A DNA stretch of 25,936 nucleotides from a virus (IMGVR_UViG_2778261639_000014:1-25936), one strand, 5' to 3'; positions 3,761-21,747 are shown, counted from the first letter of the stretch. A program made the numbers and translations. Notes: generated from the sequence alone by a model not told the origin.

Positions 3761-3823
3761 CACAGCTGTTGATAACAGTCATCTAAATTAACGCCAGGCC
3801 GCGCCACACATGGAGAAACCACG

Positions 3824-4708: not shown

Positions 4709-4710
4709 TA

Positions 4711-4965: not shown

Positions 4966-5000
4966 CATTTGCGCGGTTCTCATCAAGCAGTGGTATTGAT

Positions 5001-5810: not shown

Positions 5811-5817
5811 CACTGAT

Positions 5818-5838
5818 GCCCCTGAACGGGGCTTTTTT
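5818..5838 (+). terminator. Rho-independent terminator
   Basis: GCCCC-TGAAC-GGGGC hairpin followed by TTTTTT, 8 nt after the stop of the 5001..5810 gene. Confidence 0.7.
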
Positions 5839-5884
5839 GTGTCCTCCTTGTAACTCTCAATCGTGCAAAATGAACCAAACATGC

Positions 5885-5935
5885 AGAGAATGCTATGTAC
5901 AAGCATCTGTGCATACATTATTATTTTATGCAGCA
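5885..5935 (+). promoter_or_regulatory. par promoter/operator region
   Basis: AT-rich region 40-90 bp upstream of parA with two inverted repeats: ATGCT-N7-AGCAT (~5890-5906) and TGCATA-N11-TATGCA (~5910-5932). Consistent with an autoregulated par operator. Confidence 0.5.
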
Positions 5936-5978
5936 TTTTTAAGTAAATTCAAAAATACAGCATAAAGGATGACTTTCG

Positions 5979-7175: not shown

Positions 7176-7191
7176 GGAGTAAGAAACCCCC

Positions 7192-8193
7192 ATGTCAAAG
7201 AAAAACAGACCAACAATTGGGCGAACCCTTAATCCTTCAATATTAAGCGGATTTGATAGTTCTTCAGCCTCTGGCGATCGAGTCGAGCAGGTATTCAAGT
7301 TATCAACTGGTCGCCAGGCCACATTTATTGAAGAGGTAATACCTCCGAACCAGGTAGAAAGCGATACCTTTGTTGATCAGCATAACAACGGGCGTGACCA
7401 GGCATCTCTTACGCCAAAATCATTAAAAAGTATCCGAAGCACTATTAAGCATCAGCAATTTTACCCTGCAATAGGTGTTAGACGGGCTACAGGGAAAATT
7501 GAAATTTTGGATGGTTCCCGGCGTCGAGCTTCTGCCATCTTAGAGAACGTAGGGTTGCGGGTTTTAGTCACGGACCAGGAGATCAGCGTTCAGGAAGCGC
7601 AAAATTTAGCGAAAGACGTTCAGACAGCATTGCAGCACAGCATTCGAGAAATAGGTCTGCGTTTGATGCGAATGAAAAATGATGGGATGAGTCAGAAGGA
7701 TATTGCAGCCAAAGAAGGGCTGTCTCAGGCGAAGGTCACGCGTGCTCTCCAGGCAGCGAGTGCTCCGGAAGAATTAGTCGCCCTTTTCCCTGTGCAGTCG
7801 GAATTAACCTTTTCGGACTACAAAACGCTTTGTGCTGTTGGCGACGAAATGGGGAACAAGAATTTAGAGTTTGATCAGCTTATTCAAAACATATCCCCGG
7901 AAATAAACGACATCTTATCCATTGAAGAAATGGCCGAAGATGAAGTTAAAAATAAAATCCTGCGCTTGATAACAAAGGAAGCCTCACTACTCACGGATAA
8001 AGGTTCTAAAGATAAGTCCGTAGTTACTGAATTATGGAAATTTGAGGACAAGGATCGCTTTGCAAGGAAGCGCGTGAAAGGCCGGGCATTTTCTTATGAG
8101 TTTAATCGACTTTCAAAAGAGCTACAGGAAGAACTCGACAGGATGATTGGGCATATCCTTAGAAAGAGCCTCGATAAAAAGCCGAAGCCTTAA
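7192..8193 (+). CDS. parB: Centromere-binding protein ParB (P1 type)
   Basis: 333 aa with GAGGAG SD. N terminus MSKKNRPTIGRTLNPS and length match P1 ParB as recalled. Directly followed by parS. Confidence 0.95.
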   Translation: MSKKNRPTIGRTLNPSILSGFDSSSASGDRVEQVFKLSTGRQATFIEEVIPPNQVESDTFVDQHNNGRDQASLTPKSLKSIRSTIKHQQFYPAIGVRRATGKIEILDGSRRRASAILENVGLRVLVTDQEISVQEAQNLAKDVQTALQHSIREIGLRLMRMKNDGMSQKDIAAKEGLSQAKVTRALQAASAPEELVALFPVQSELTFSDYKTLCAVGDEMGNKNLEFDQLIQNISPEINDILSIEEMAEDEVKNKILRLITKEASLLTDKGSKDKSVVTELWKFEDKDRFARKRVKGRAFSYEFNRLSKELQEELDRMIGHILRKSLDKKPKP

Positions 8194-8197
8194 ACTT

Positions 8198-8285
8198 TCG
8201 CCATTCAAATTTCACTATTAACATACTGTTTTTAAAGTAAATCCATCTAAAATTTCAAGGTGAAATCGCCACGATTTCACCTTGG
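8198..8285. other. parS: Partition site parS (P1 type)
   Basis: Box B TCGCCA (8198-8203), box A ATTTCAC (8209-8215), AT-rich ~45 bp spacer (IHF-bend-like), inverted box A GTGAAAT (8260-8266), box B TCGCCA (8266-8271), box A ATTTCAC (8274-8280). Confidence 0.85.
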
Positions 8286-8337
8286 ATTTTACCTTCCGCC
8301 CCTACTCCCGAAAAAAATAAAAAAATTGCTTGTCACG

Positions 8338-8368
8338 AGAAAGTCAACAAGTGACTTTCAATAAAATC
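8338..8368 (+). promoter_or_regulatory. Late (Lpa-dependent-type) promoter upstream of the gene-23-like operon
   Basis: Inverted repeat AAAGTCA-N5-TGACTTT followed 3 nt later by a -10 TAAAAT and no -35. Fits the organisation recalled for P1 late promoters. Confidence 0.5.
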
Positions 8369-8397
8369 TCTTCCGAAAAGGGATTCACACAAGTGCC

Positions 8398-10125
8398 TTG
8401 TGTTTAAGGAAGAGTAAATTGAGTAACTTACGCGAATACCAGAATCGTATTGCAGATATCGCAAAACGCTCTAAAGCTGTGCTTGGCTGGGCAAGCACTG
8501 CGCAGTTCGGTACTGATAACCAATTCATTAAAGATGATGCCGCGCGTGCCGCATCTATCCTTGAAGCTGCACGTAAAGACCCGGTTTTTGCGGGTATCTC
8601 TGATAATGCCACCGCTCAAATCGCTACAGCGTGGGCAAGTGCACTGGCTGACTACGCCGCAGCACATAAATCTATGCCGCGTCCGGAAATTCTGGCCTCC
8701 TGCCACCAGACGCTGGAAAACTGCCTGATTGAGTCCACCCGCAACAGCATGGATGCCACTAATAAAGCGATGCTGGAATCCGTCGCAGCAGAGATGATGA
8801 GCGTTTCTGACGGTGTTATGCGTCTGCCTTTATTCCTCGCGATGATCCTGCCTGTTCAGTTGGGGGCAGCTACCGCTGATGCGTGTACCTTCATTCCGGT
8901 TACGCGTGACCAGTCCGACATCTATGAAGTCTTTAACGTGGCAGGTTCCTCTTTTGGTTCTTATGCTGCTGGTGATGTTCTGGACATGCAATCCGTCGGT
9001 GTGTACAGCCAGTTACGCCGCCGCTATGTGCTGGTGGCAAGCTCCGATGGCACCAGCAAAACCGCAACCTTCAAGATGGAAGACTTCGAAGGCCAGAATG
9101 TACCAATCCGAAAAGGTCGCACTAACATCTACGTTAACCGTATTAAGTCTGTTGTTGATAACGGTTCCGGCAGCCTACTTCACTCGTTTACTAATGCTGC
9201 TGGTGAGCAAATCACTGTTACTTGCTCTCTGAACTACAACATTGGTCAGATTGCCCTGTCGTTCTCCAAAGCGCCGGATAAAGGCACTGAGATCGCAATT
9301 GAGACGGAAATCAATATTGAAGCCGCTCCTGAGCTGATCCCGCTGATCAACCACGAAATGAAGAAATACACCCTGTTCCCAAGCCAGTTCGTTATCGCGG
9401 CTGAGCACACGGTACAGGCGGCGTATGAAGCACAGCGTGAATTTGGTCTGGACCTGGGTTCCCTACAGTTCCGCACCCTGAAAGAATACCTGTCCCATGA
9501 ACAGGATATGTTGCGTCTCCGCATCATGATCTGGCGTACTCTTGCGACCGACACCTTTGACATCGCTCTGCCGGTTAACCAGTCCTTTGATGTATGGGCA
9601 ACCATCATTCGTGGCAAATTCCAGACTGTATATCGCGACATTATTGAGCGCGTTAAATCTTCTGGTGCGATGGGGATGTTTGCTGGTGCTGATGCAGCAT
9701 CTTTCTTCAAACAGTTGCCGAAGGATTTCTTCCAGCCAGCCGAAGACTATATCCAGACTCCGTATGTTCACTACATCGGTACCCTGTTCGGTAACGTGAA
9801 AGTGTACGAAGTACCTGCTGGTATTTGTAAGAACTTAACGACAGAGAACATTCAGTTCAGCTCGATGGATGTGCTGTGCTACGTCCGTGATGAAAATCCG
9901 GGTAAAGCAGGCTTCGTGACTGGTGATGCTGTCCCGGCCATCCCGTTCCAGCATCCGACCACTCCGGCGCTGGTCAACCGTACCACGCTGTGGGGTTCGG
10001 CTATCAACGATATGCACCCACGCAACGGCGCTGATTACTTCACTCGTGTAACGCTGACAATGGCCAAAAAAGGCGGGCTTAACTTTATAAGCGGCGACAC
10101 GATTGATGCCGGTGACTCTGAGTAA
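8398..10125 (+). CDS. Structural protein in the position of P1 gene 23 (putative major head protein)
   Basis: Track start TTG 8398; better start TTG 8419 with AAGGAAG SD. ~568 aa with strong codon bias. First gene after parS behind a late promoter. Assigned by position and expression signature, not by a verified motif. Confidence 0.6.
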   Translation: MCLRKSKLSNLREYQNRIADIAKRSKAVLGWASTAQFGTDNQFIKDDAARAASILEAARKDPVFAGISDNATAQIATAWASALADYAAAHKSMPRPEILASCHQTLENCLIESTRNSMDATNKAMLESVAAEMMSVSDGVMRLPLFLAMILPVQLGAATADACTFIPVTRDQSDIYEVFNVAGSSFGSYAAGDVLDMQSVGVYSQLRRRYVLVASSDGTSKTATFKMEDFEGQNVPIRKGRTNIYVNRIKSVVDNGSGSLLHSFTNAAGEQITVTCSLNYNIGQIALSFSKAPDKGTEIAIETEINIEAAPELIPLINHEMKKYTLFPSQFVIAAEHTVQAAYEAQREFGLDLGSLQFRTLKEYLSHEQDMLRLRIMIWRTLATDTFDIALPVNQSFDVWATIIRGKFQTVYRDIIERVKSSGAMGMFAGADAASFFKQLPKDFFQPAEDYIQTPYVHYIGTLFGNVKVYEVPAGICKNLTTENIQFSSMDVLCYVRDENPGKAGFVTGDAVPAIPFQHPTTPALVNRTTLWGSAINDMHPRNGADYFTRVTLTMAKKGGLNFISGDTIDAGDSE

Positions 10126-10151
10126 TCAGGGGAAGTTCTCCGTTTAACATA

Positions 10152-10170
10152 GCGCCCCCGTGCGGGGCGC
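10152..10170 (+). other. Intercistronic GC-rich hairpin without U-tract
   Basis: GCGCCCC-CGTGC-GGGGCGC between the gene-23-like and sheath genes. No T-run follows, so probably an RNA processing or stability element rather than a terminator. Confidence 0.4.
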
Positions 10171-10185
10171 ATAACAGGGAAAGTT

Positions 10186-11775
10186 ATGTCTCAATATTCA
10201 ATTCAACAGTCATTAGGTAATGCATCCGGCGTCGCTGTTAGCCCGATCAATGCCGATGCGACGTTATCTACCGGTGTTGCATTAAATAGCAGCTTGTGGG
10301 CTGGTATTGGCGTATTTGCGCGTGGCAAGCCGTTTACTGTTCTTGCGGTTACTGAGTCCAATTACGAAGATGTTCTCGGCGAACCGCTGAAGCCGTCTTC
10401 CGGCTCACAGTTCGAACCAATTCGCCATGTGTACGAAGCTATTCAGCAAACGTCTGGTTATGTTGTCCGTGCTGTTCCGGATGATGCGAAGTTCCCGATT
10501 ATTATGTTCGATGAATCAGGCGAACCGGCTTACAGTGCGTTGCCATACGGTTCTGAAATTGAACTTGATAGCGGCGAAGCCTTTGCTATCTACGTTGATG
10601 ATGGTGATCCGTGTATTTCACCTACCCGTGAGTTAACCATCGAAACGGCAACAGCGGACAGCGCAGGTAATGAACGCTTCCTCCTGAAACTGACCCAGAC
10701 GACTTCGCTCGGCGTGGTAACGACCCTGGAGACACACACTGTGTCTTTGGCGGAAGAAGCAAAAGATGACATGGGCCGCTTGTGTTATCTGCCTACGGCT
10801 CTGGAAGCCCGTTCTAAATATCTGCGCGCGGTTGTTAATGAAGAGCTGATTTCGACGGCGAAAGTAACAAATAAAAAATCGCTGGCGTTCACTGGCGGTA
10901 CCAACGGCGATCAGTCGAACATTTCCACTGCTGCTTACCTGCGCGCGGTGAAAGTGCTGAACAATGCGCCGTACATGTACACCGCTGTTCTCGGCCTGGG
11001 TTGCTATGACAATGCGGCGATCACTGCGTTAGGTAATATCTGTTCTGATCGCTTGATTGATGGCTTCTTTGATGTCAAACCGACATTGACGTACACGGAA
11101 GCGATCTCTGCTGTTGAAGATACCGGTTTACTTGGTACCGATTATGTAAGCTGTGCTGTCTATCATTTCCCGTTCTCCTGCAAAGACAAATGGACCCAAT
11201 CCCGCGTGGTCTTCGGTCTGTCTGGCGCGGCGTATGCGGCGAAAGCTCGTGGCGTCAAGAAAAACTCCGATGTCGGCGGTTGGCATTACTCACCGGCTGG
11301 TGAAGAACGTGCCGTCATTGCTCGTGCATCACTTCAACCGCTGTATCCGGAAGACACCCCGGACGAAGAAGCTATGGTCAAGGGCCGACTCAATAAAGTA
11401 TCTGTAGGTACTTCGGGCCAGATGATCATCGATGATGCTTTAACTTGCTGCACGCAGGACAACTATCTGCATTTCCAGCACGTCCCATCCCTGATGAATG
11501 CAATCAGCCGTTTCTTTGTCCAGTTAGCCCGACAGATGAAGCATAACCCGGACGGCATTACTGAGTCTGGCCTGACTAAAGGGATGACCAAACTTTTGGA
11601 TCGCTTTGTCGCCTCCGGCGCTCTGGTGGCTCCTCGTGATCCTGATGCTGACGGTACAGAACCGTATGTGCTGAAAGTTACGCAGGCGGAATTCGATAAA
11701 TGGGAAGTAGTCTGGGCCTGCTGCCCGACTGGCGTAGCCCGTCGTATCCAGGGCGTACCGCTGCTTATTAAGTAA
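10186..11775 (+). CDS. Contractile tail sheath protein (putative, P1 gene 22-like)
   Basis: 529 aa. Contains GGWHYSPAG, resembling the G-x-W-x-x-P-A-G motif I associate with sheath proteins. Size fits a ~57 kDa sheath. Confidence 0.65.
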   Translation: MSQYSIQQSLGNASGVAVSPINADATLSTGVALNSSLWAGIGVFARGKPFTVLAVTESNYEDVLGEPLKPSSGSQFEPIRHVYEAIQQTSGYVVRAVPDDAKFPIIMFDESGEPAYSALPYGSEIELDSGEAFAIYVDDGDPCISPTRELTIETATADSAGNERFLLKLTQTTSLGVVTTLETHTVSLAEEAKDDMGRLCYLPTALEARSKYLRAVVNEELISTAKVTNKKSLAFTGGTNGDQSNISTAAYLRAVKVLNNAPYMYTAVLGLGCYDNAAITALGNICSDRLIDGFFDVKPTLTYTEAISAVEDTGLLGTDYVSCAVYHFPFSCKDKWTQSRVVFGLSGAAYAAKARGVKKNSDVGGWHYSPAGEERAVIARASLQPLYPEDTPDEEAMVKGRLNKVSVGTSGQMIIDDALTCCTQDNYLHFQHVPSLMNAISRFFVQLARQMKHNPDGITESGLTKGMTKLLDRFVASGALVAPRDPDADGTEPYVLKVTQAEFDKWEVVWACCPTGVARRIQGVPLLIK

Positions 11776-11784
11776 GGAAATACA

Positions 11785-12600
11785 ATGAGCAAAAACTTTT
11801 TTCAATCCGGGGCATTTTTGGGGAATGGACTGTCCCGTTTCGCTTTGAACTCTGATCCTGTGCAGCTGATGGAGTCTGCCCGAGCAAGCGCTGAACCGCC
11901 AACAGATCCGGTTATTAATAATAATCCGGAACCGGCGGCACAGACTAACGATAACGTTCCATCTGCCCCGGCTCCTGAGCAAATCCTGGAAGGGAAAGAC
12001 GGTAAAGAATGGACCGTCGAACAGGCGCACCAGATGATTCTGGAAGCTGCAAATCGAAGTGCTATGCAGAATGCGTTGAGTGATGCGGCCGACGCCGTTT
12101 TCGCCTGGGCTGATAGCGGTGATCTGACTTTCGACTCCCTTGATGGTTTCGTTCAGGCTATCGCTGGTATCTCTGATGACGACGACTCCGAAGTTACAGA
12201 AGAACAGGACGATGCCTATAACGAAGCATGGGCAAATGTTGCTGACTTCCTCGCAGCATGCGGTGTAGATGATGACCTGATCGAAGCACTGGCTGACGAT
12301 GAAGACGACGACGCAGCTGCTGATGTTGGTGCCTCTATCGCTGGTTTAGATAGCGACGACCGCGACGAACTGGAAGCGGCGTTTGTTGTTGCTGGCACTT
12401 CTGATGAAATGCTGACTGAAGCATTTAAGAAGGTTGTTCGTAATGGTGAGATCAAACTCATCCGTAAACGCCTGCGTAAAAAACGTCTGACTGCGGCTCA
12501 AAAATCGGCGCTGAAAAAAGCGCGTCGAAAAGCCCAGACCGGCGCGGCAAAACTTGCCCGCAAAAAGTCAATGAAACTGCGCCGTAAGCGCCTTGGCTAA
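11785..12600 (+). CDS. Charge-segregated protein (acidic body, basic C-terminal tail)
   Basis: 271 aa with AAGGAAA SD. Long D/E-rich stretches (DDDDSEVTEEQDD, DDEDDDAAADV) and a K/R-rich final ~50 aa (KRLRKKRLTAAQKSALKKARRKAQTGAAKLARKKSMKLRRKRLG). No enzymatic motif. Confidence 0.6.
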   Translation: MSKNFFQSGAFLGNGLSRFALNSDPVQLMESARASAEPPTDPVINNNPEPAAQTNDNVPSAPAPEQILEGKDGKEWTVEQAHQMILEAANRSAMQNALSDAADAVFAWADSGDLTFDSLDGFVQAIAGISDDDDSEVTEEQDDAYNEAWANVADFLAACGVDDDLIEALADDEDDDAAADVGASIAGLDSDDRDELEAAFVVAGTSDEMLTEAFKKVVRNGEIKLIRKRLRKKRLTAAQKSALKKARRKAQTGAAKLARKKSMKLRRKRLG

Positions 12601-12635
12601 AGGAGGAGGCCGGAGAACTCCGGCCTTTAACTTGA

Positions 12636-13217
12636 ATGGCACCTATACCTTATGGGGTTTACAGCCAGGCTGACGGTGTATCGCCATTTCTGAAAGTTAC
12701 TTTAACGAACTCTCAGTACCAGGTTACCGGATATATCAGCCAGGGGGCAGCAATGAACATGGCCCAGAATTGGGAAGCGCCGTTTACCGGTATGTCCATG
12801 GGGTCTGTTGCTGGTGCTTTCAGTGGTTTTGCGCAGGTTGGTACTGAAACAACGTCGGTGGCCCGTTGGAACAGCTTAATGGTTTGGGAAGGGGGGACAC
12901 CGCCGACGTTCACGCTGCCCGTAACTTTCATTGCTTTGAACAATCCATTCATTGAAGTTTCAGGCGCTATCGCCGCGTTGACAGCCATGATTAGCCCGGA
13001 ACTAAAAGCGGCCAATGTTGGTGGTCGAATCCCGGAACGTGTGACGCTAAACATTGGTCGCCGGATCAACATCACCGATGTCGCTATCCAGGACTTAAGT
13101 TTTGATCTCGATGCGCCAAGGGACAGTAATGGATATTTCCTGAAAAACACCGTCAACCTCCAGTTGACCGGTTCTTCGATATATAACAGCTCCGATATTG
13201 TTCGGGCGTTCCAGTAA
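12636..13217 (+). CDS. Hypothetical late-operon protein (tail component candidate)
   Basis: 193-aa ORF preceded by a GGCCGGAG/CTCCGGCC hairpin. Gly/Ala/Thr-rich. No diagnostic motif. Confidence 0.5.
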   Translation: MAPIPYGVYSQADGVSPFLKVTLTNSQYQVTGYISQGAAMNMAQNWEAPFTGMSMGSVAGAFSGFAQVGTETTSVARWNSLMVWEGGTPPTFTLPVTFIALNNPFIEVSGAIAALTAMISPELKAANVGGRIPERVTLNIGRRINITDVAIQDLSFDLDAPRDSNGYFLKNTVNLQLTGSSIYNSSDIVRAFQ

Positions 13218-13228
13218 AAGGATTTTAT

Positions 13229-13738
13229 ATGGGGCACAATAACACTAAGGGAAACCGTAAATTTATTAAGGGCCGCTATACTGCCAACGCGGCCAAAGGC
13301 GAACGACTGGTATCTTCTGAATTCCAGCTCACTTTTGCAGGCCATGAAGATATCAGCGTACTGGTTCGCACGTCGCAAATTCCTGAAATGACCCGCGAGG
13401 ATGTGGAGGACTATGGTCCGAATGGTGTGAAGTTCAACCAGCACGGTCCAATTCGAAACTCTGGGGAAATCCAGGTCCAGTGCGTGGAGACTATCGAAGG
13501 CGATATTCTTCAGTTCATTAAGGATCGCATTGCGGCGAAGGACTATGTTGATATCACGATGGCTGCGACCCCTGAATCCAAATCTTCCGGGGTTAACGCT
13601 GTGACTAAAGCTGCTACAACAATTGAAATGTTGGACTGCAAAATCTACAGTGATGCAATCGACTTTAGTACCGAAGATGTGACTGCCGCTGTGCGCCCGT
13701 CACTTCGTATCGTCTACAACTGGATTGATTGGGATTAA
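13229..13738 (+). CDS. Tail tube protein candidate
   Basis: 169 aa with AAAGGA SD. Last gene of the sheath-containing operon, followed by a strong terminator. Size fits a myovirus tube protein; assigned by size and position only. Confidence 0.45.
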   Translation: MGHNNTKGNRKFIKGRYTANAAKGERLVSSEFQLTFAGHEDISVLVRTSQIPEMTREDVEDYGPNGVKFNQHGPIRNSGEIQVQCVETIEGDILQFIKDRIAAKDYVDITMAATPESKSSGVNAVTKAATTIEMLDCKIYSDAIDFSTEDVTAAVRPSLRIVYNWIDWD

Positions 13739-13757
13739 GAGCCATCCCTTGTATTTT

Positions 13758-13782
13758 AAAGCTCCTTCGGGAGCTTTTTTTA
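13758..13782 (+). terminator. Rho-independent terminator of the late structural operon
   Basis: AAAGCTCC-TTCG-GGAGCTTT hairpin followed by T7, 20 nt after the stop codon. Confidence 0.85.
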
Positions 13783-13909
13783 TAACTATTTTATATAAAA
13801 ATGCATCGATAACATTGTCTGGAGTTTTATGTTAGATTATTAATGTTCTAATAAACTACAATTATTGCGGTAGATGTTTGTGCCTGTACTGTTAAAGGGG
13901 GACTCTAAA

Positions 13910-14506
13910 ATGGCTGTGATTCCAATGTCGTACTCCCCGGGTACTGTCGCTCGTCGATTTTCGATCCTGGACGGAGTTACCATCCAGGGTGTGCTTTACC
14001 AGGTTATATGGGATTCCAAAACCCCATTTGCAGCTGTAATAGAGGCTGCGCCTTCTGTTATCGATGGTGATATGCGGCATAAGGTTGTCGCTACTCTTGA
14101 ACTTCAACGTCGCCCGCAGCTTGAAGGCGTACTGGTAAGGAAGTTCTGGGAGGATAGCGATGTTGGCCAGATTGAAGGTATCGTGGTTGATGGAACTGTC
14201 CGGGATGTCGGTTTAGCTACTTTTGTTTACGAAACCGTAGCCTCAAAAGCTGGTGTTGTTTTGCTCAGTGATAATGAGCAATACGAAGGTGGAAAAGCTC
14301 TTTGGCAACATATCGCCCGTCGCTCTTCCGAGCTAAAAGTGTTTATCCTCGACACCGATGCTGCTCAGTATTACCCGTTTGACGGCGAACGTGTTTGCTA
14401 TGACGGGAAAAGTATTCCTGAATCCGAGATATGGAGTGAACATCCGGATCGAAGTAAGCATGGGGTTGTTCTTGTCGCAGAATCCATAACTGGAAAGGCG
14501 GCATAG
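13910..14506 (+). CDS. Hypothetical protein (orphan gene with its own promoter)
   Basis: Track ORF 13874..14506; ATG 13910 preceded by AAAGGGGGA. 198 aa. Preceded by a ~100-bp AT-rich promoter-like region. No recognisable domain. Confidence 0.55.
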   Translation: MAVIPMSYSPGTVARRFSILDGVTIQGVLYQVIWDSKTPFAAVIEAAPSVIDGDMRHKVVATLELQRRPQLEGVLVRKFWEDSDVGQIEGIVVDGTVRDVGLATFVYETVASKAGVVLLSDNEQYEGGKALWQHIARRSSELKVFILDTDAAQYYPFDGERVCYDGKSIPESEIWSEHPDRSKHGVVLVAESITGKAA

Positions 14507-14688
14507 CAGTAAAAAATTCCTTGCTCCTTAAAAGGGGAGAGGGTTAATCTACGTATGCTAAGCATAGGTATGGCCCCGGTTAATGTTAAGCGTTGTGCGG
14601 GACGCATAATGTTTACTGGGGCTTTCTTCTATCTGCTTTTCGGGGAATGCCTGAAGCAGATAGCCTCAAGCACACCGCAGCGGGTGTA

Positions 14689-14934
14689 TCAATGTCTGGC
14701 TTTTTTTCTATAGAAATCACCTGGAAGGGTGAATATCCACATCAGAAGAAATGTTGCAGCAAACATGATCCCTAATGGCCAGACCGCGCCAAAGAAAATC
14801 CATACTAAGATCTCCTCTGCTCGTTCTTTGCGGTCGATATCGACAAGCATTTTTCGGCTGATCATGTATACACAGAAGCCAATACAAACATATCCTGCAA
14901 AAGCGATCGCTAACTGTAAAAAATCAGATTGCAT
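14689..14934 (-). CDS. Small two-helix membrane protein
   Basis: Track ORF 14689..15015; ATG at 14934 preceded by GAGG. 81 aa with two hydrophobic helices (LQLAIAFAGYVCIGFCVYMI; ILVWIFFGAVWPLGIMFAATFLLMWIF) and a basic C terminus. Confidence 0.5.
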   Translation of the reverse strand: MQSDFLQLAIAFAGYVCIGFCVYMISRKMLVDIDRKERAEEILVWIFFGAVWPLGIMFAATFLLMWIFTLPGDFYRKKARH

Positions 14935-14964
14935 CTCCGACCTCAAACTGAAAACGCCAGGTGA

Positions 14965-14981
14965 CTCCAGATTAGAGCAAT
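14965..14981. promoter_or_regulatory. C1 operator-like site between repL and the small membrane-protein gene
   Basis: Core ATTAGAGCAAT (14971-14981) matches the conserved half of the C1 operator; the upstream half is degenerate. Lies 4 bp below the repL stop and ~35 bp upstream of the membrane-protein start. Confidence 0.45.
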
Positions 14982-14984
14982 CTA

Positions 14985-15830
14985 TCACCCTCTGAATCCT
15001 GCCGGTATACCCCATTGTTCGTTATCTTTATTTTTGGCTAAAACCGCATTAAGAGCTTCGTTTACCGTCATGCAATGCGGCAGATTATCGAAGTTTGATA
15101 CCCCGCCAATATCAGGAGAACGCTTGTTCTTCAGGTAAGCATATTTCCGCGCTGCCGCCTCTACTTTCTGCTTGAACTCATGTTTTTGAGCGCGTTTTTT
15201 GGATAACCGCAGATTGTCAGCCTTTGCTTTTGCCTCAGCGATCCATGAAGTCAATTTTTTGAGTCTGGTCGTTCCGGCACCGCCGGAAACTGATCTTTTT
15301 GTTTTTTTAACTTGTGACTTCTTATTCTTTATTGCCACGTCATCCTGACAGGGGGAGGGGGTATCATTTTGACATGGGGGTGTGGATAAAAAATTAAATA
15401 AAGCCAATGTCTTAGCGAGAACAGCTTTAACCTTGGTTGCCGCTGAAGAGATCTTTAATTTGCTTTCAATCAGCGCATTTTTGGCTTGTTGTGCGAAGGC
15501 CAAAAAGGATGGTGTAAACCGGTACAGGTTAGCGCGACGTTCATGGTGATCGCCGATAACAATCTCTACAGACAGAATTCCTTTGTTTACAGCTTCACGG
15601 AATGCACGAACGACGGTTGATTGGCTATAACCAGTTTCTGCCGCGATCAGGCGGTGAGGCTTGTGAATGAAGTATTCACTAGTTGTTGCCGCGAGATTTG
15701 CACATTGCGACAGGATATGCCCGGCGCTACGGGATAGACCGGAGTGTGTTACAAAGCAGGCCAATTCATAGCCAGAAAAAGTAAAATCGCTCATCGTTAT
15801 ACAGCTCAGGAAAGTGACTTTAGCCAGCAT
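14985..15830 (-). CDS. repL: Lytic replication protein RepL
   Basis: 281 aa from the track start; internal ATG at 15794 is an alternative. Matches P1 RepL as recalled (MSDFTFSGYELACFVTHSGLSRSAGHILSQ). Directly downstream of kilA as in the P1 kilA-repL operon. Confidence 0.8.
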   Translation of the reverse strand: MLAKVTFLSCITMSDFTFSGYELACFVTHSGLSRSAGHILSQCANLAATTSEYFIHKPHRLIAAETGYSQSTVVRAFREAVNKGILSVEIVIGDHHERRANLYRFTPSFLAFAQQAKNALIESKLKISSAATKVKAVLAKTLALFNFLSTPPCQNDTPSPCQDDVAIKNKKSQVKKTKRSVSGGAGTTRLKKLTSWIAEAKAKADNLRLSKKRAQKHEFKQKVEAAARKYAYLKNKRSPDIGGVSNFDNLPHCMTVNEALNAVLAKNKDNEQWGIPAGFRG

Positions 15831-15859
15831 TACAATGCTGGTGGTTCTTACTACGTCTG

Positions 15860-16660
15860 TTAGCGCGTTGCCGCGACAGGTACCAGCACACCAGCATCAA
15901 GCAATCGCTTCATCAGCCACTGCTGACCTTTGCCGGTTATACGAGTCGTGAAAGAAATCCTGCTTCCATTGCTTGTATCGATCACGGTTTCTTTAAGGGT
16001 GAAATACCCACGGGATATGTATTCTTGTTTGGGGACGTTCCTGCGTTCACCGGTTGCGATCAGAATTCCGTTATCACGCAACCAGGTGAAGAGATAGTTT
16101 TGGCCCAGGCCGAGCACTTTGGCATAGTTGCCGATTAGAACTCCGCTGGCGGTAGCAACGCGTTCGGCGAATTCGACTTTAGGTGCATCCATAAGCATTT
16201 TTTGCTCCAGCCGTTGCTTTTGCTCTGCCAGGTCGGCAGCCAAACGGAGAGCTTCAGGGAGACTCTGCGGAATAGCAGGTTGTAATCTTCCGGCTCGATA
16301 GTCGATAAATGTCTGGTTTACCTTCAGCCGAAACGCGGGAGAAATCCAGCCTGCGTACTCCACAGCGAGCAATTCATGGGCAAAAGTGCCGCCGCCACGG
16401 CCTTCGAAAGAAACTATGCAATTCTGCATAGTTTCTTTTTCAAGCTCTTCGATGAGCTGTTTGGCTGACAGCGTTCTTAGCCATTGAGCTGGCGCTTTAT
16501 GGGCACCGAGTCCGCTCGCTCTGTGTAGAGCATTAAGGTTGTAACGGCCAGCGCGGTCGGTCGTAATTTCAACACCACAAATAACAGGCAGAGTGGTTGA
16601 AGGATCGACATTTTGATGAAGGTTTGATATATTCATATCCGCATTGAATGTTTGTTGCAT
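15860..16660 (-). CDS. kilA: KilA (KilA-N DNA-binding domain plus antirepressor-type C-terminal domain)
   Basis: 266 aa with GGAGAAAAA SD. C-terminal half (IPQSLPEALRLAADLAEQK ... TGKGQQWL) is clearly paralogous to the C terminus of the upstream ant-like protein. Preceded by a C1 operator. Confidence 0.85.
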   Translation of the reverse strand: MQQTFNADMNISNLHQNVDPSTTLPVICGVEITTDRAGRYNLNALHRASGLGAHKAPAQWLRTLSAKQLIEELEKETMQNCIVSFEGRGGGTFAHELLAVEYAGWISPAFRLKVNQTFIDYRAGRLQPAIPQSLPEALRLAADLAEQKQRLEQKMLMDAPKVEFAERVATASGVLIGNYAKVLGLGQNYLFTWLRDNGILIATGERRNVPKQEYISRGYFTLKETVIDTSNGSRISFTTRITGKGQQWLMKRLLDAGVLVPVAATR

Positions 16661-16729
16661 TTTTTCTCCAAATTTGCATCAACCTTCAATCACCAGCTCG
16701 AAATGGTGATTCTTTGCACTTAGAAAACG

Positions 16730-16746
16730 AAATTTATTAGAGCAAA
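16730..16746. promoter_or_regulatory. C1 operator (P1 Op53-like) controlling kilA-repL
   Basis: AAATTTATTAGAGCAAA is the reverse complement of the C1 operator consensus with one mismatch, ~70 bp upstream of the kilA start. Confidence 0.75.
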
Positions 16747-16789
16747 TTTTTCTGGCCCGATCCAGATCGGGTTGGTCGATCTGCTCAGA

Positions 16790-16818
16790 AACCTGCCAGT
16801 TTGCTGGCAGGTTTTTTC
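16790..16818. terminator. Hairpin terminator between ant and kilA
   Basis: CCTGCCAG-TTTG-CTGGCAGG flanked by an A-run on one side and T6 on the other. Strong in the + direction, weaker (short U-tract) for the minus-strand ant transcript. Confidence 0.5.
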
Positions 16819-16823
16819 TTTTG

Positions 16824-17867
16824 TTAACCTATTGCTACTGGTTTTAACAAACCAGCATCAAGTAGCTTGCGAGTTAACCACTGCTGGCCTTTACCCGTTA
16901 ATTGGGGCGTCAGCCGTATCTGGTAGCCATTTTCATCATCCAGCACCACTTCTTTCACCGTGAAATATCCGGCGTTGATGTACTGCTGGCGCGGTACGTT
17001 TTTGCGCGCACCAAAAGCCATGAGAATGCCGTTCTGGCGCAACCATGAGAAAAGGGCGTTTTGCTTAAGTCCAACGACCTTTGCAAAGTTCCCGATCAGG
17101 ATTCCATTAGCCGCTGATACCCGGTCGGCAAAATCGACTTTAGGGGCTGCGGCCACCAGCTGTTGTTCCAACTGCATTTTCTGTTCTGCCAACTCGGCAG
17201 CCAGGCGTAGAGCTTCTGGTAATGTTTGGGGGATCGATGGGGTAGGTGAGTTTGCCTGCTGCAATTCTTCCAGTTTGTCGATCAGCGAACGGCGGACCGC
17301 TTTCGATTCGCGCGCGGCGACTCGCAGGGCTTGTTTGTAGGTCATGGTTATGACCTCAAAAGAGCGCCCGGCCCTTGTGCCATGGGATTTTACGAAAGTT
17401 TCGTAAAATTCCCCATCAAGTTCATCCTTAATTCTATTGAGAAAATCGTTATTGCGGATCTCATTTTCCCTACATAGCTTGCGCGCATCATTAACCATCT
17501 TTAACAGCGTCTGGCTGTCGATTGTGTCTCCAGTGTTGGAGATAACATTCACAGCTGGTGATGGCGTAGCTGAAGCAACAGATGCTGGTTTTTTAACATT
17601 CAAATTATTACTGGTCATTCTATGTGCCTCCTTTCTCATTTCTGCTGCCACCGTTGCGTAACGTAGACGTCCTTGTTCAATCAAATAATCCCTGATCTCG
17701 GCTATCAGTAGCCTGTTGATCACAGCCTTATCTGTTCGGGTATAAAAACGCCTGGTTATCATGAAATAGTTGGCAATTGCGCCGGGGATCTCCCGTGTCG
17801 GCATACAGGCAGTATGCAGGGCGATCGCTTCGGCTATTTCATTACGGGTGACGAGAGGTTTTTTCAT
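16824..17867 (-). CDS. ant: Antirepressor (P1 Ant-like)
   Basis: 347 aa. Central Rha/AntA-like region and C-terminal antirepressor domain shared with KilA. Preceded by an overlapping 73-aa ORF and a C1 operator, as in the P1 immI operon. Confidence 0.8.
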   Translation of the reverse strand: MKKPLVTRNEIAEAIALHTACMPTREIPGAIANYFMITRRFYTRTDKAVINRLLIAEIRDYLIEQGRLRYATVAAEMRKEAHRMTSNNLNVKKPASVASATPSPAVNVISNTGDTIDSQTLLKMVNDARKLCRENEIRNNDFLNRIKDELDGEFYETFVKSHGTRAGRSFEVITMTYKQALRVAARESKAVRRSLIDKLEELQQANSPTPSIPQTLPEALRLAAELAEQKMQLEQQLVAAAPKVDFADRVSAANGILIGNFAKVVGLKQNALFSWLRQNGILMAFGARKNVPRQQYINAGYFTVKEVVLDDENGYQIRLTPQLTGKGQQWLTRKLLDAGLLKPVAIG

Positions 17868-18085
17868 AAAACCCCCTGAACGTCAGCAGAGAAGGGGAGG
17901 TTCCAGTAACTAAGTGAATTGCGCGAGTTAGTAGAAAAACGGGCAGTAAAAATGCAGGGGCCATCAGGCAATTGAGAGCGTGCTTCGTCTTCAGTTGCTG
18001 CGATAACGAAGTGATAGTGGTGTTTTTGGCAGGAGTAAAAGCGCCAGATAAATTCAGGATGAGTAGGGGTAGGGATAGTAGCCAC
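17864..18085 (-). CDS. icd: Icd-like small protein overlapping the ant start
   Basis: 73-aa ORF with GTG start and AGGAGG SD 9 nt upstream; its stop overlaps the ant start. Same size and arrangement as P1 icd as recalled. An alternative 81-aa frame (17842..18087) is also open. Confidence 0.5.
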   Translation of the reverse strand: MATIPTPTHPEFIWRFYSCQKHHYHFVIAATEDEARSQLPDGPCIFTARFSTNSRNSLSYWNLPFSADVQGVL

Positions 18086-18270
18086 AATGGCAGCCTCCTT
18101 TTGCTAATTTAAGGAGCTACCGCGTGAGGTTCCAATCTCAATGGCGGTAGCACTGACTGGGTTGGAACTACCGGCGCAAAAGGGAACCGGCCTGCCTTTC
18201 GGCAGCCCAGCCAGCACTACCATTGATCTCGGAGCTATGTGCTACGTATGGCTGTGCGATGGCATGACAC

Positions 18271-18410
18271 AAAAAAAGACGCTTTTGGCGTCTGTGTCGC
18301 CTTTTGCATTATCCGGGGTCTCAATCCCGGCACCCGTTTTAATGAGGTGCCTGATAAGCATAAACCGAAAATGCCTCAAGGCGCAAGAGGTCAGGCTCAA
18401 TGTAACATCG
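18271..18410 (-). ncRNA. c4-like antisense regulatory RNA region (immI leader)
   Basis: Between the operator/promoter at ~18415-18441 and icd: a T-arm-like stem-loop CCGGG-ATTGAGA-CCCGG (~18311-18336) and a GACGC-TTTTG-GCGTC hairpin followed by U7 on the minus strand (~18271-18292). Fits the position of P1 c4. Boundaries not determined. Confidence 0.3.
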
Positions 18411-18424
18411 GTAGTTAAAAAACA

Positions 18425-18441
18425 CAATTCATTAGAGCAAA
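18425..18441. promoter_or_regulatory. C1 operator-like site (P1 Op51-like) upstream of the immI-like module
   Basis: Core ATTAGAGCAA at 18431-18440 within a 17-mer with ~3 mismatches to the consensus. Lies 4 bp from the pacB stop codon. Confidence 0.6.
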
Positions 18442-18444
18442 TAT

Positions 18445-19929
18445 TCATTCATTAAGCCATGCCAGAGCTTCATCAACCTGCGCTTCGTCTTCGACGCTAA
18501 GCACTTCATCCTGGGGAACATAATCCGCCAGCATAGCGAAACAATATGTATCCCAATGGTCTGGTGAGTGCAGGTTGAGTTTTTTCTTCATATCCTCCTT
18601 ACTCATCACCTTCCATTGACCTGCGGAGTTAATCCCTACAGGGATTTTCGACGCTTCCTCAATAGTTTCATTACCCTTATCCAGTCTCATACGACCAGAT
18701 TTTACGGCCTCTGCGGCTTGAACATTGGCATAAGCACGTTTATCAAAGTACAGGCTCTTATCTTCACGGCTATGCATCTTTTTACCCCAGCGTATACGCT
18801 GTACGGTAATACCATAATACTCGTACATCAGATCCGCCGTTGCTTTACCCAGGCCATCGCCGTCTATCGCTATGGTGATATTGGGGAATCGCTCAGGATT
18901 ACATTCTGCGAAAATTTTGGCGGCAAGCTGCGTTTCTGTAACGTCTGTGTATTCCAGCATTCGATAGTTGATTACACGGCGTTTATTTCGCTGGCCGGAC
19001 ACCATCATGATATTGATAACGGACTTATCCCGTCCCGTACCACCAGCAACGTCCACACATGCAAGCCAGCCCCATCCTTTGGCAATCTTGACTTTCCGCC
19101 GCGTTGCACGTTCAACCTCATCACGTCCAAGAAGGAAGCCATCCTGTGATTTAGGGAATAGGCCGCGTACCTTAATCATGTACATAGGGTTATCACGCCC
19201 GCCGTACTCCGCCAGCTTCATTTTGATAAATGCTGGCGTTACCAACGGTGATTCCTCACTGTTAAGCGTGATCGCCGTATAAACGCCATCAGGGTTACCA
19301 GGACGCTTGGCCAGTTTATGGTGTGTATCGTAGAAATAGCCGCTTGGGCGTGTAGGCTGTGACAGCAATAAGATGCGGTTATCCTGTCCGGTAAGAGCAC
19401 CGGTGATGATACCGAAAGCTCTATCACTGACACCGGAGGCTTCATCGATAATATACAGAAGATGATCTGCGTGTTCACCGGCGAGAGCTTCTTCACTTCC
19501 CAGACGAAAGCCCTTCGGTACTACAGTCCATACACCTTTACCAGTAACCTCATAGAAAGCGGTTTCTGTCAGAACAAAATAATCAGCAAGCCATGGAAAA
19601 CGGCTGGTGGCAGTAGCCCAGTTTATCTTGATGTACTTGAATATACCGGTCATTACCTGCTGAATTTTGTTCGCAACGATAATGGCTCGGGCACCGGGAT
19701 ACATGATTATGAACAACATGATCATGATAGAAGTCATGTCTGATTTCCCGGTACCGTGACCAGACGAAACAGATGTCTTGCTACCCTGTTCCTGCACAGA
19801 CTCAATAATCAGATCCTGCTGCCAGGTAGGTGTTTTGCCGAACAAAACATCAGCGGCAGCAATCCAGTCATAACGATATAGCGCCACCAGCTCGCGCCAA
19901 CGTGGATCCGTTACGCAACTTCTGGCCAT
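18445..19929 (-). CDS. pacB: Terminase large subunit PacB
   Basis: 494 aa. Walker A GHGTGKS, Walker B-like [12 protein letters not shown]-terminal nuclease-like acidic region. Start overlaps the pacA stop. Confidence 0.9.
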
Positions 19930-21122
19930 TAATCATCATCCCCGTATAGCTTGCGGGTAACTTCTTCGTCTTCCTCCTCGTCTTCGTCCAAGTCTTGTTC
20001 CAGCCATGGGTCGTTTGATACACCTTCAGTATCAACATCTCCATAACCGCCTGTATCAACGATATCGGCGATTTCTTCCCTACGCTGCTCAATCCACAAT
20101 GCGGCATCGGCGCGGCGGTTGGCGGCCCGTTCTCGCGCAACTTTGTCCAGATCTTCAAGAGAAGGGCCACCGACGGCTGTTTGCCTTTCCTCATCATCGG
20201 TATTGGTCTTAGGAGCACGCAGATCGGCTTTGATTTGCTCCAGCATCAGGGGCGGCACTTTTCCGCCATGCGCCTCGATGAATTCAGCTGCTTCCAGCAC
20301 TGACCAGTTATTTTCACGCTTTCGTTCGTATGCCAGCTTAACAATGCCAGCTTGCCCCATAGACAAAGCGTGCTTTTCCGCCTCCCGGCTTTCTTTTCGA
20401 TAGTTATTCCGGATGCTGTAAATGGTGTTGATCAGGCTGCTTATCTGCGCGGAACAGCTGTTTAGCATGCTCGCGATACGATATTCAGGCGGAGTCCCTT
20501 CATCATCGTCTTTTTGCTGATCGCGCATTTCCTGCACCAGACGAATACACGTATCCCTGGCGTTCTCCAGCATAAGGAGATGAGAGAGAGACTTTTCCAG
20601 AAGAGTGGTTTCCAGAACATCAGCCCCGGACCGACGCAACATAGCGCGCGCGGCCTTCCGCGCTTCAACGTTATCTATCAGGTAATCGCCAGCTTCGAAT
20701 TCAAAGCGTTCACCATCATCATCCAGGGTGTCGCGTTCCAGGCGATCACGTAAGGTCCGGTGGGCGCGGGTGATCACGTCATGATCATCAGAACGATCAT
20801 TTATGCGCTTATTCTGGCGCTTCGCGTTCTCGACTGCGGCACTGACAACAGCATTAACTCTTTGTTTTTCAGCCATTTCAGCCGCAATGTGATCACCTGC
20901 ATGTTGATCATTAGAGTGATCAATGATCATGCTTTTTAGTGGCTTCCTGACTGGCTTATTTGGCTTGCGGCTGTCCGCTGTCCTGGTGTCTTCTTTGAAG
21001 GCACGGAGATAACGACGTGCGGTATTAGGGTTAAGATTAAACTCGGCGGCATACTGTGCGATGGTGTAACCACCATCTCGCGCCAGGCGAGCAAAATTCT
21101 TCTTGTGATCGTCCCAGGTCAC
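19929..21122 (-). CDS. pacA: Terminase small subunit / pac-recognition protein PacA
   Basis: 397 aa with GTG start. Immediately upstream of pacB and contains the pac hexamer clusters. Acidic C terminus. Confidence 0.85.
20742..20930 (-). other. pac: Packaging site pac (TGATCA/G hexamer clusters)
   Basis: Two clusters of GATC-containing hexamers inside pacA: ~20742-20798 (CGATCA, TGATCA x2, CGATCA) and ~20889-20928 (TGATCA x4), separated by ~90 bp. Matches the described P1 pac architecture of 4 + 3 hexamers flanking the cut region. Confidence 0.75.
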
Positions 21123-21207
21123 TTATGCTTCCTTTCGTAAAAACTCTTTTTGACGCGAGGGTAACGAAAGTCACATGTCAAAAGGCCCGGAACGGGCAAG
21201 CAATCAA

Positions 21208-21660
21208 TCAGATACGTGCGGATGTGGCATTACCGTAATGACGGTGCTGACGGGCCACCTTATTGAAAAGTTGACGCGCCATTACCCAAGGCTGGTGCTC
21301 CCGGCGTTCCTTTTCGTCCTGCGTCATATAGAGTTCGTTCTGGAGTTTTTCATCAAACCGGCGCGGCGCGCGGCTGCGGCGAAAGAATTCAGGATTCAGA
21401 GAGTGGATCTGAAATCTACGTGGGCGTGTACTGTCATCAATCAAAACAGACGAATACTTAGACACAGCGATAGCCTTTAAGCGCAGATAAACGTCGCGCT
21501 TATCGACATCCAGATGCGGGTATTCCTTTTCAAGGATTGCTGCGAGTTCTTTCGCTGATAGAAGAGATTTAGTGCGGATCATGTAATCCGCAATCTCGTA
21601 CGATGTTATTCGTGAGTGATTTATTTCCATGAAGTGGCGTCCCTGCCAGTTAAGTAACAT
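21208..21660 (-). CDS. lpa: Late promoter activator Lpa (putative)
   Basis: 150-aa basic protein ~70 bp downstream of a C1 operator and immediately upstream of pacA. Position and size fit P1 lpa. Alternative start at ATG 21630. Confidence 0.55.
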   Translation of the reverse strand: MLLNWQGRHFMEINHSRITSYEIADYMIRTKSLLSAKELAAILEKEYPHLDVDKRDVYLRLKAIAVSKYSSVLIDDSTRPRRFQIHSLNPEFFRRSRAPRRFDEKLQNELYMTQDEKERREHQPWVMARQLFNKVARQHRHYGNATSARI

Positions 21661-21730
21661 CCTGTCACCTACTGATTAGCCCATGTCAACTAATCAACGT
21701 GGAATATAATACCCTAGATTAAAGAAGTAG

Positions 21731-21747
21731 CAATACATTAGAGCAAT
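21731..21747. promoter_or_regulatory. C1 operator-like site upstream of lpa
   Basis: 17-mer with core TTAGAGCAAT (21738-21747). Adjacent to the stop codon of the upstream gene and ~70-85 bp from the lpa start. Confidence 0.55.

Follow-up and report, generated by a model that had tools for sequence, protein, structure and literature searches.

Co-oriented C1 operators and a hybrid c4 module in a stretch of P1-like phage-plasmid DNA without c1

Gene organization

The sequence described here is a stretch of viral DNA of 25,936 nucleotides, referred to as the window, which on the strength of its colinearity with P1 is P1-like (Punavirus) phage-plasmid DNA. Two segments account for this colinearity. 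Positions 1–18058 correspond to P1 coordinates 66445 down to 48497, and positions from 18448 onward correspond to P1 coordinates 93204 down to 89151. The genes and RNAs described below all lie on the minus strand. At the left end are hrdC (31–936) and uhr (929–1213), both intact and arranged as in the uhr-hrdC-dmt segment of P1; with these two genes the C1-controlled dmt operon begins, dmt itself lying past the left end of the window. The lytic replicon consists of kilA (15860–16660), the product of which has Pfam KilA-N and ANT matches, and repL (14985–15830), both of them intact open reading frames in the arrangement found in P1. Beyond repL is an open reading frame of 81 codons (14689–14934) whose translation contains two hydrophobic segments; it replaces the rlfA and rlfB genes of P1, has a Pfam match that is sub-threshold only, and is also called in the loci L010, L011 and L013.

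To the right of kilA are an immI-type antirepressor gene, ant1/ant2 (16824–17867), recognized from a Pfam ANT match and its identity to immI, and an immI-type icd gene (17864–18085), assigned by the same identity. These are followed by a C4 antisense RNA gene (18140–18227), which is a full-length match to Rfam family RF01695 (76.7 bits, E = 1.2e-13), and, between this gene and its promoter, by an isrK-like leader RNA (18272–18350; RF01394, 59 bits), within which the terminator scan places a terminator-like hairpin at 18293–18277. C4 is a translational repressor of icd-ant, and its gene precedes icd-ant in the same transcriptional direction; the C4 loop GUUCCAA (18163–18169) is complementary to a UUGGAAC target (18127–18133) located before icd, and loop and target covary in other alleles (GUCUCAA and UUGAGAC). 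The right part of the window contains the terminase genes pacB (18445–19929) and pacA (19929–21122), identified by homology and annotation, and the late-promoter activator gene lpa (21208–21660), which is annotated in both P1 and RCS47; all three are intact.

C1 operators and their orientation

The C1 repressor of P1 has an asymmetric 17-bp consensus and 22 dispersed operators (PMC8546580). The exact 10-mer ATTAGAGCAA is present five times in the whole window, at 1291, 14971, 16736, 18431 and 21737, where 0.05 occurrences are expected under a uniform model on both strands, and all five are on the plus strand, in agreement with the initial annotation, which had reported five C1-operator-like sites in one orientation. 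When up to one mismatch is allowed there are seven matches against 2.46 expected, a number reached in none of 100 shuffled sequences. Four 17-bp matrices were made from annotated P1 operators, the names of which follow the GenBank annotation (NC_005856), and approximately 51,800 17-mers were ranked with them. The first four ranks are held by the sites at 1285 (rank 1 with every matrix), 16730 (rank 2), 21731 (rank 3) and 18425 (rank 4), and three of the sites are identical to annotated P1 operators, so that their assignment as C1-operator sites holds well.

The scores of the weaker sites depend on the matrix. With an 8-site matrix from which homologues were excluded, the 18425 and 21731 sites score 13.8 and 14.2 bits, inside the range of the shuffle maxima (mean 12.4, largest 16.8), and with a 12-site matrix they score 20.3 and 20.6 bits, above the largest shuffle maximum of 16.3. 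The 14965 site ranks between 20 and 329 with the 17-bp matrices, where its scores of −6.1 to 6.8 bits do not rise above background, and ties for the top score when scored over the 11-bp core ATTGCTCTAAT alone. The initial annotation had named 14965 and 18425 as the sites whose scores might fall below background; this is the case for 14965 and not for 18425, which ranks fourth. Four further candidates were not counted as operators: the one-mismatch core at 2763 (7.7–9.3 bits, within the shuffle range), the one-mismatch core at 4553 (outside the top 14 matrix hits), and the matrix hits at 4686 and 13842, with scores in the shuffle range.

The counterparts of Odmt, Orlf, OrepL and Olpa are at positions that match the P1 annotation by colinearity. 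Odmt (former Op68; ATTGCTCTAATAAATAT, 1285–1301, minus strand) has the sequence of the annotated P1 operator without change, and its 3′ end abuts and overlaps the −35 hexamer of Pdmt (TTGTTT, 1280–1285), the −10 hexamer being TACCAT (1256–1261). OrepL (former Op53; TTTGCTCTAATAAATTT, 16730–16746, minus strand) is identical to P1 in both operator and promoter, and includes the −10 hexamer of PkilA/P53 (TCTAAT, 16736–16741), with TGGATC (16759–16764) as the −35 hexamer; Op53 and P53 have been described, and kilA is lethal in Escherichia coli (PMC9948254). Olpa (former Op94; ATTGCTCTAATGTATTG, 21731–21747, minus strand) likewise matches P1 exactly in operator and promoter, and overlaps the −35 hexamer of Plpa (TTGCTA, 21728–21733), with TATTAT (21706–21711) as the −10 hexamer. 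At all three sites the −35 and −10 hexamers are conserved relative to P1.

The fourth site (TTTGCTCTAATGAATTG, 18425–18441, minus strand) is the probable C1 operator of the c4-icd-ant operon, as judged from its geometry and its identity to relatives. It is 3 nt away from the stop codon of pacB, and its last three bases begin a predicted −35 hexamer (TTGTGT, 18422–18427) that is separated by a 17-nt spacer from a predicted −10 hexamer (TACATT, 18399–18404). The c4-icd-ant transcript would be predicted to begin roughly 7 nt past 18399. The offset between operator and −35 hexamer is +14, as in Oc4/P2c4 and Olpa/Plpa of P1. Moreover, ATTAGAGCAA and the next 21 nt, up to the pacB stop codon, are identical in four independent records (RCS47, L007, L018 and L019), in all of which the operator-pacB stretch is followed by ash-icd′-ant′-c1. 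Identity to the RCS47-type module and analogy to Oc4 thereby point to its operator status. All four of these sites (1285, 16730, 18425 and 21731) overlap or abut a σ70 −35 or −10 hexamer and run in the same direction as the promoter. By binding to its asymmetric 17-bp site, C1 would be expected to block RNA polymerase at Pdmt (1285), PkilA/P53 (16730), the c4-icd-ant promoter (18425) and Plpa (21731), binding at these sites being predicted from sequence.

The single orientation of the sites had been regarded as unusual on the premise that their target promoters occupy both strands, and this premise does not hold. Homology to the annotated P1 record places Pdmt, PrlfA, PkilA, the c4 promoters and Plpa all on the minus strand of the window, and the five controlled transcription units all run on that strand. 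In two stretches of P1 in which 12 operators are annotated, each monovalent operator is on the strand of its promoter, and each bivalent operator has its promoter-side half on the promoter's strand. Because P1 operators point with their promoters and all five controlled units are on the minus strand, the shared orientation is, from the sequence comparison with P1, the expected arrangement and not an odd one.

A hybrid module at the usual position of c1

Searches of the window by tblastn with the C1 proteins of P1 and RCS47 and with Coi found neither c1 nor coi, with nothing better than E = 0.25, and the reported absence of c1 from the window stands. The conclusion that regulation is entirely in trans is correct for C1, but holds equally for all P1 operators other than those in immC, and is nothing special to this sequence. 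In P1, 24 bp separate the pacB stop codon from the start of c1, and in RCS47-type elements c1 comes after a 1.7-kb module that adjoins pacB; a c1 gene no more than about 2 kb from the end of pacB, in an immC region with the order c1-coi-imcAB, is a feature absent from the window. We note that the place beside pacB where c1 usually lies is itself within the window, and is occupied by a recombinant joint that had been overlooked.

The two sides of the joint have different relatives. The ant1 and icd genes are 94–100% identical to those of immI in P1 and NZ_CP134391, and 30–90% identical to those of the pacB-side module. Along the window, identity to immI stays at 94–100% as far as about 18250, and identity to the pacB-side module is 96–100% from about 18100 onward. 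Markers specific to immI are last seen at 18108 (compared with L007), and pacB-side markers are first seen at 18252 (compared with L006); comparison with the two modules of pP136-6 places the switch between 18241 and 18319, and the same switch is seen in sliding identity. The crossover interval defined by the marker switch and sliding identity (18108–18319) is inside the Rfam-confirmed c4 region, and the joint fuses kilA-ant1-icd-c4 to the pacB-side operator and pacB. The usual sim-side flank of the immI module is not present in the window, and pacB is found on the operator side instead. Exact look-ups of the Ant1, PacB and Icd proteins returned ordinary contexts only among the 24 blocks listed for each (24 of 20,408 for PacB), and in these blocks every other occurrence of Ant1 and Icd has the sim-side immI context.

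Many P1 relatives have two paralogous modules in direct repeat, each with a C1 operator, c4, icd and ant, the first being immI beside kilA-repL and the second being inserted between pacB and c1. In the window these two modules are fused within the c4 region, a fusion that bypasses the segment in which ant′, c1, coi, cre and the tail and lysis genes would be found. The lack of c1 is explained by a joint, formed by recombination or by mis-assembly, at the position where c1 normally sits. The whole explanation, in which P1-like DNA carries known sites of the C1 regulon that are co-oriented with minus-strand transcription units and has lost c1 at the joint between the modules, has in our estimation a probability of about 80%.

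The site beside repL and the origin of the joint

The fifth site (ATTGCTCTAAT followed by CTGGAG, 14965–14981, minus strand) resembles Orlf (former Op55) and is its positional counterpart, and it had been taken to give the small membrane protein a C1 control of its own, separate from that of kilA-repL. There is some basis for this in that the P1 record annotates Orlf/Op55 at this very position upstream of rlfA, the 11-bp core matches without a mismatch and recurs in all but one of 11 sequences (the window and 10 loci), and the core contains TCTAAT, the hexamer that forms the PkilA −10 inside Op53. However, the match is limited to that core (14971–14981), with the right-hand 6 bp unlike the consensus. 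In P1, Orlf consists of ATTGCTCTAAT followed by TATAAC, and the homology of the window to P1 stops at the edge of the core. The promoter scan found no σ70-like match overlapping the site, and the predicted PrlfA of P1 is 110 nt downstream, in sequence that is absent from the window. The core lies 3 nt past the repL stop codon and remains beside repL with each of three downstream cassettes, which argues against a control dedicated to the small open reading frame; and because no terminator or strong fold was found between repL and the 81-codon reading frame (z = −0.38), read-through from PkilA is a simpler source of its transcript. With the background score in the 17-bp matrices and all five controlled promoters on the minus strand, we consider separate control of the small gene, and with it an unusual orientation of the sites, to be unlikely, and the site is better described as a remnant 11-bp core of Orlf/Op55, and a weak site at best.

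Whether the joint was made in a cell or by an assembler is a question on which the evidence divides, with either a deletion or duplication of about 49 kb or an assembly chimera as its likely origin. No second copy of the joint turned up among the records and contigs examined. A megablast search of PLSDB gave no high-identity span across it, the best match (92.9%) being an ordinary pacB-side module, and the same was true of complete E. coli genomes (best 90.5%); two exact anchor-gap-anchor patterns, both of which do match the window itself, had no match in IMG/VR, GTDB representative genomes or JGI metagenomes. Its absence from the collections searched means that the reality of the joint depends on one sequence. 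One explanation, plausible although short of even odds, is that the assembler entered from the immI side and left on the pacB side of a normal P1-like element, or elements, with both modules and with c1 in its usual place. The switch falls exactly where the two modules are 96–100% identical, and the genes on both sides are intact, including the lethal kilA, as would be expected if nothing had lived without C1. Yet the near-identical stretch is short, approximately 150–300 bp (with a perfect run of 79 nt in pP136-6), and repeats of that length are usually resolved by paired or long reads. Recombination in vivo is a possibility that we hold somewhat more tentatively: exchange between the modules, which are direct repeats in complete plasmids, predicts the exact gene order observed, and would give either a c1-less circle of about 45–50 kb (pacB ... 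dmt ... repA/par ... repL-kilA-ant1) or, by unequal exchange between two copies, a larger molecule with a duplication in which c1 is kept. The retained segment has the plasmid replicon, partition genes and phd-doc, and the hybrid module keeps a matched C4 and target pair. Against this, besides the lack of a second example, an intact PkilA without C1 would express the lethal kilA (PMC9948254), together with repL and lpa, so that a lone c1-less circle should be unstable.

As to possible parents, pP136-6 is the better model, with the same c4 allele family in both modules and the 79-nt identical run. NZ_CP134391 has both modules and was rejected as a parent since its c4 alleles differ, and CP088502.1, considered as a full-length match, is a mosaic in a different order, with c1 retained. 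The c4 allele is carried twice in only 4 of 339 PLSDB plasmids, and suitable parents are therefore uncommon. We consider it improbable that the window derives from a natural c1-less P1 derivative of about 45–50 kb that arose by module recombination, survives only with a co-resident P1-like donor of C1 and could be packaged by that helper. Such a derivative would have the pac site, lytic and plasmid replicons, partition genes, phd-doc, and head and sheath genes, and would be without repressor, tail-fibre and lysis genes; if real, it would be a satellite-like parasite of P1 immunity. Until the joint at 18.1–18.3 kb has been verified, the window is unfit as evidence for a C1 regulon without c1. 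More generally, the two directly repeated, C1-operated c4-icd-ant modules of many modern P1-like plasmids are a substrate for a deletion of about 50 kb that would remove immunity, and they bear on both the stability and the assembly of resistance-carrying phage-plasmids.

Comparison with known systems

In P1 these operators have been described for decades, together with the consensus, the promoters that they target and their dispersed arrangement, and they are part of the reference annotation; the window is ordinary known biology with one structural oddity. It has the same genes, gene order and operator positions as the P1 C1 regulon (NC_005856; Odmt/Op68, Orlf/Op55, OrepL/Op53, Oc4/Op51 and Olpa/Op94); three of its operators are identical to P1 base for base together with their promoters, the 17-bp consensus ATTGCTCTAATAAATTT applies, and operators are co-oriented with promoters in both. 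It differs in that the Orlf counterpart is reduced to its core, the 81-codon reading frame and a sok-like remnant replace rlfA and rlfB, the c4 operator belongs to the pacB-side module and not to the Op51 locus, and c1 is not beside pacB.

The closest relatives of the sequence to the right of the joint are the pacB/c1 modules of RCS47, pTZ20_1P and many other P1-like plasmids, to which positions 18100–18448 are 96–100% identical, with an identical junction from the operator to the pacB stop codon. Insertion of an antirepressor module between pacB and c1 has been reported (PMC6906374). The RCS47-type module runs into icd′, then a gene for an antirepressor of 370–372 amino acids with ORF6N and ANT domains, and then c1, whereas the window runs into an immI-type icd, a 347-residue ant1 product and kilA-repL. 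With the immI region of P1 and P7 (sim, Op51, c4, icd, ant1/2) the window shares the C4 RNA, icd and ant1/ant2 followed by Op53-kilA-repL, and in both the C4 loop is complementary to an a2-type target; however, the c4 allele of the window is about 45% identical to that of P1 immI over 18100–18300, and pacB replaces the sim-side flank. Immunity-defective deletion plasmids such as P1cry are P1 plasmids that have lost c1 by deletion, and resemble the window in their lack of c1; in the window kilA-repL is intact and its promoter would be unrepressed.

Genome organization and C1 operators

By megablast the window belongs to the P1 group, which comprises Punavirus and the P1-like phage-plasmids found in E. 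coli and Salmonella. Positions 1–18058 are colinear in reverse with P1 66445→48497 and include hrdC, uhr, upfC/B, repA, parA/B, 23, 22, 21, repL, kilA, ant1/2 and icd; colinearity resumes at 18448, now with P1 93204→89151, and covers pacB, pacA, lpa, pdcB, then phd-doc and beyond. The window RepA is 294 aa long with Rep3 N and C domains (P1 repA is 860 bp). Between repA/incA and parA the window carries an ORF of 269 aa encoding a T5orf172 domain (5001–5810, + strand), which relatives annotate as a GIY-YIG nuclease and which has no P1 counterpart.

The sequence ATTAGAGCAA is present in exactly five copies (1291, 14971, 16736, 18431 and 21737), on the + strand every time, with 0.05 expected under a uniform model. 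The enclosing − strand 17-mers, named from homologous positions in the annotated P1 record, are ATTGCTCTAATAAATAT at 1285, TTTGCTCTAATAAATTT at 16730 and ATTGCTCTAATGTATTG at 21731, identical to P1 Odmt (formerly Op68), OrepL (Op53) and Olpa (Op94) respectively; ATTGCTCTAATCTGGAG at 14965, the counterpart of Orlf (Op55); and TTTGCTCTAATGAATTG at 18425, the operator of a c4-icd-ant operon. P1 Oc4 (Op51) itself falls where P1 and the window cannot be aligned, but its geometry matches that at 18425. Operators of C1, the P1 master repressor, follow the asymmetric consensus ATTGCTCTAATAAATTT, and P1 has 22 of them at dispersed positions (PMC8546580). On sequence, position and promoter geometry, four of the sites are predicted members of this family; the fifth qualifies by its core only.

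We scored the window with 17-bp log-odds matrices built from annotated P1 operators, using a set of eight (no window homologues) and a set of all twelve, each with two pseudocounts. In all four matrices sites 1285, 16730, 21731 and 18425 take ranks 1–4 of about 51,800 17-mers, and 14965 ranks between 20th and 329th (−6.1 to 6.8 bits), although it is joint best when the 11-bp core is scored alone. With the independent 8-site matrix, 18425 and Olpa score 13.8 and 14.2 bits, both within the dinucleotide-shuffle maxima (mean 12.4, largest 16.8); with the 12-site matrix they score 20.3 and 20.6 bits, above the shuffle maximum of 16.3. The fall below background that the initial annotation had proposed as a test of both 14965 and 18425 is thus seen for 14965, but not for 18425.

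The five sites share one orientation because the five operons are co-directional. The proposal that they control promoters on both strands is wrong, as the P1 annotation puts every one of Pdmt, PrlfA, PkilA, Plpa and both c4 promoters on the strand corresponding to the window − strand. Among the 12 operators annotated in two P1 stretches, the monovalent ones are all on the strand of the annotated promoter they control, and the bivalent ones (Oban, Oc1ab) have their promoter-side half on the promoter's strand. The hexamers of Pdmt (TTGTTT/TACCAT), PkilA (TGGATC/TCTAAT, with the −10 inside the operator) and Plpa (TTGCTA/TATTAT) are conserved in the window. At 18425 the final three operator bases begin TTGTGT, followed after 17 nt by TACATT; the operator-promoter offset of +14 equals those of Oc4/P2c4 and Olpa/Plpa, and we infer a candidate promoter here.

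The site downstream of repL

Site 14965 follows the stop codon of repL by 3 nt and precedes by 30 nt the ATG of an ORF of 81 aa that has two hydrophobic segments; this ORF, then a sok-like remnant, replaces P1 rlfA/rlfB. The site agrees with Orlf only in its first 11 bp (P1 ...TAAT|TATAAC, window ...TAAT|CTGGAG), homology to P1 stopping exactly at the core's edge. In the window and ten related loci the core occupies a constant place before three different cassettes (rlfA-type, 81-aa-ORF-type and IS605/hok-type), and therefore belongs to the end of repL and not to the small ORF. It is exact in 10 of these 11 sequences. The exception, L008 (CP074812.1), has ATTAGAACAAT, a single-base substitution in the Orlf core homologous to window 14971–14981; a similar G-to-A change, ATTAGAACAA, is seen in the pacB-side operator of the P1-like element pP136-6, so neither operator is invariant among relatives.

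Separate C1 control of the small membrane ORF, as initially suggested, is disfavored by the end of P1 homology at the core's edge, by the retention of the core across cassettes, by the lack of any sigma-70 match overlapping the site, by the location of the predicted P1 PrlfA, 110 nt downstream in sequence that the window lacks, and by the absence of any terminator-like fold between repL and the 81-aa ORF. Most simply, the ORF would be transcribed by read-through from PkilA, the core then being a weak or vestigial candidate C1 site, which may serve as a roadblock, a looping partner or nothing; its TCTAAT could conceivably be the −10 of a P53-like promoter, but the −35 would be poor.

The window also has a full-length match to Rfam sok (RF01794, 72.9 bits; 14502–14675, − strand). 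No Hok ORF follows it, and a 210-aa ORF without a Pfam match (13874–14506, + strand) is found where relatives, L010 and L033 among them, encode a Hok of 51 aa; the locus looks like a truncated hok/sok. An operator-like 17-mer, AATGTTCTAATAAACTA (13842–13858, + strand), points in the direction of the 210-aa ORF, from which it is separated by 16 nt on the upstream side, and comes directly after TTGTCT-17 nt-TATTAA. Its score of 11–13 bits is within that of shuffled sequence, and its conservation is limited to loci that share the cassette (L006, L013, L026).

The absence of c1 and the pacB-side module

The reported absence of c1 is borne out by tblastn, which found neither c1 nor coi in the window, and it is informative because c1 is expected there. 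In P1, 24 bp separate the pacB stop codon from the start of c1. RCS47, pTZ20_1P and hundreds of plasmids have an intervening module with an operator, c4', a short ash-like ORF, icd' and an antirepressor of 370–372 aa. The literature examined mentions this insertion only as 'two short orfs and ant' (PMC6906374). The module is a complete second unit resembling immI (the c4-icd-ant antirepressor region adjoining kilA-repL), with its own predicted C1 operator, isrK-like leader, C4 RNA, icd' and ant'. It corresponds to window 18100–18448, L001 7100–7694, L007 3830–4209 and L025 25207–25549, and from the operator core to the pacB stop the window is identical to RCS47, L007, L018 and L019. In L016 (CP050217.1, 6176303–6187787), another case of an lpa-pacA-pacB block cut off at the ant' module, a chromosomal copy of lpa-pacA-pacB-icd'-ant' is followed immediately by Rac-like prophage genes (YdfE, DicB), without c1.

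The joint between immI and the pacB-side module

Sliding identity of the window to immI (NZ_CP134391, P1) is 94–100% from 16800 to about 18250, versus only 30–90% to the pacB-side module; identity to the latter is 96–100% from about 18100 on, and that to immI drops from about 18300. Diagnostic positions place the switch between 18108 and 18252 (L006/L007) or between 18241 and 18319 (the two modules of pP136-6). Within the switch interval are the C4 RNA gene (18140–18227; Rfam, 76.7 bits) and the isrK-like leader (Hfq-binding RNA RF01394, 59 bits; 18272–18350, − strand), which sits between the operator/promoter and c4 and has a terminator-like hairpin at 18293–18277. Covarying bases distinguish the c4 alleles: the window combines C4 GUUCCAA (18163–18169) with target UUGGAAC (18127–18133), and RCS47 and pP136-6 combine GUCUCAA with UUGAGAC in their pacB-side modules, which suggests distinct C4 specificities.

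In complete plasmids the two c4-icd-ant modules occur as direct repeats, and exchange between them would give exactly the gene order of the window, with loss of ant', c1, coi, cre/lox, res-mod, the lysis and tail genes and sim, about half the genome. Such a joint was not found in PLSDB or 5,426 complete E. coli genomes, nor, with two validated exact patterns, in IMG/VR, GTDB representatives or JGI metagenomes, and contigs with the exact Ant1, Icd and PacB proteins had only ordinary contexts among the matches listed. An assembly chimera formed via the shared c4 stretch would fit these results, and we give it a probability of about 0.4. Suitable parents are uncommon: the window's c4 allele is present twice in only 4 of 339 PLSDB plasmids, the two modules of NZ_CP134391 have different alleles, and those of pP136-6 are near-identical in c4, with a 79-nt perfect run.

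A real rearrangement, either a very recent event or a partial duplication with c1 elsewhere on the same molecule, would fit as well; we rate it slightly less probable than the chimera, with the remaining probability assigned to neither. kilA is lethal in E. coli (PMC9948254), and a lone c1-less circle would express it, yet kilA, repL, ant1 and lpa are all intact in the window.

Relationship to P1 immunity

The immC arrangement of P1, with c1 beside pacB, is not present in the window, and the c4-icd-ant unit has the immI features compared, except for its flank. Only the structural joint, whose authenticity is uncertain, is out of the ordinary; the sites themselves represent the known regulation of P1, and the window holds no new kind of system.
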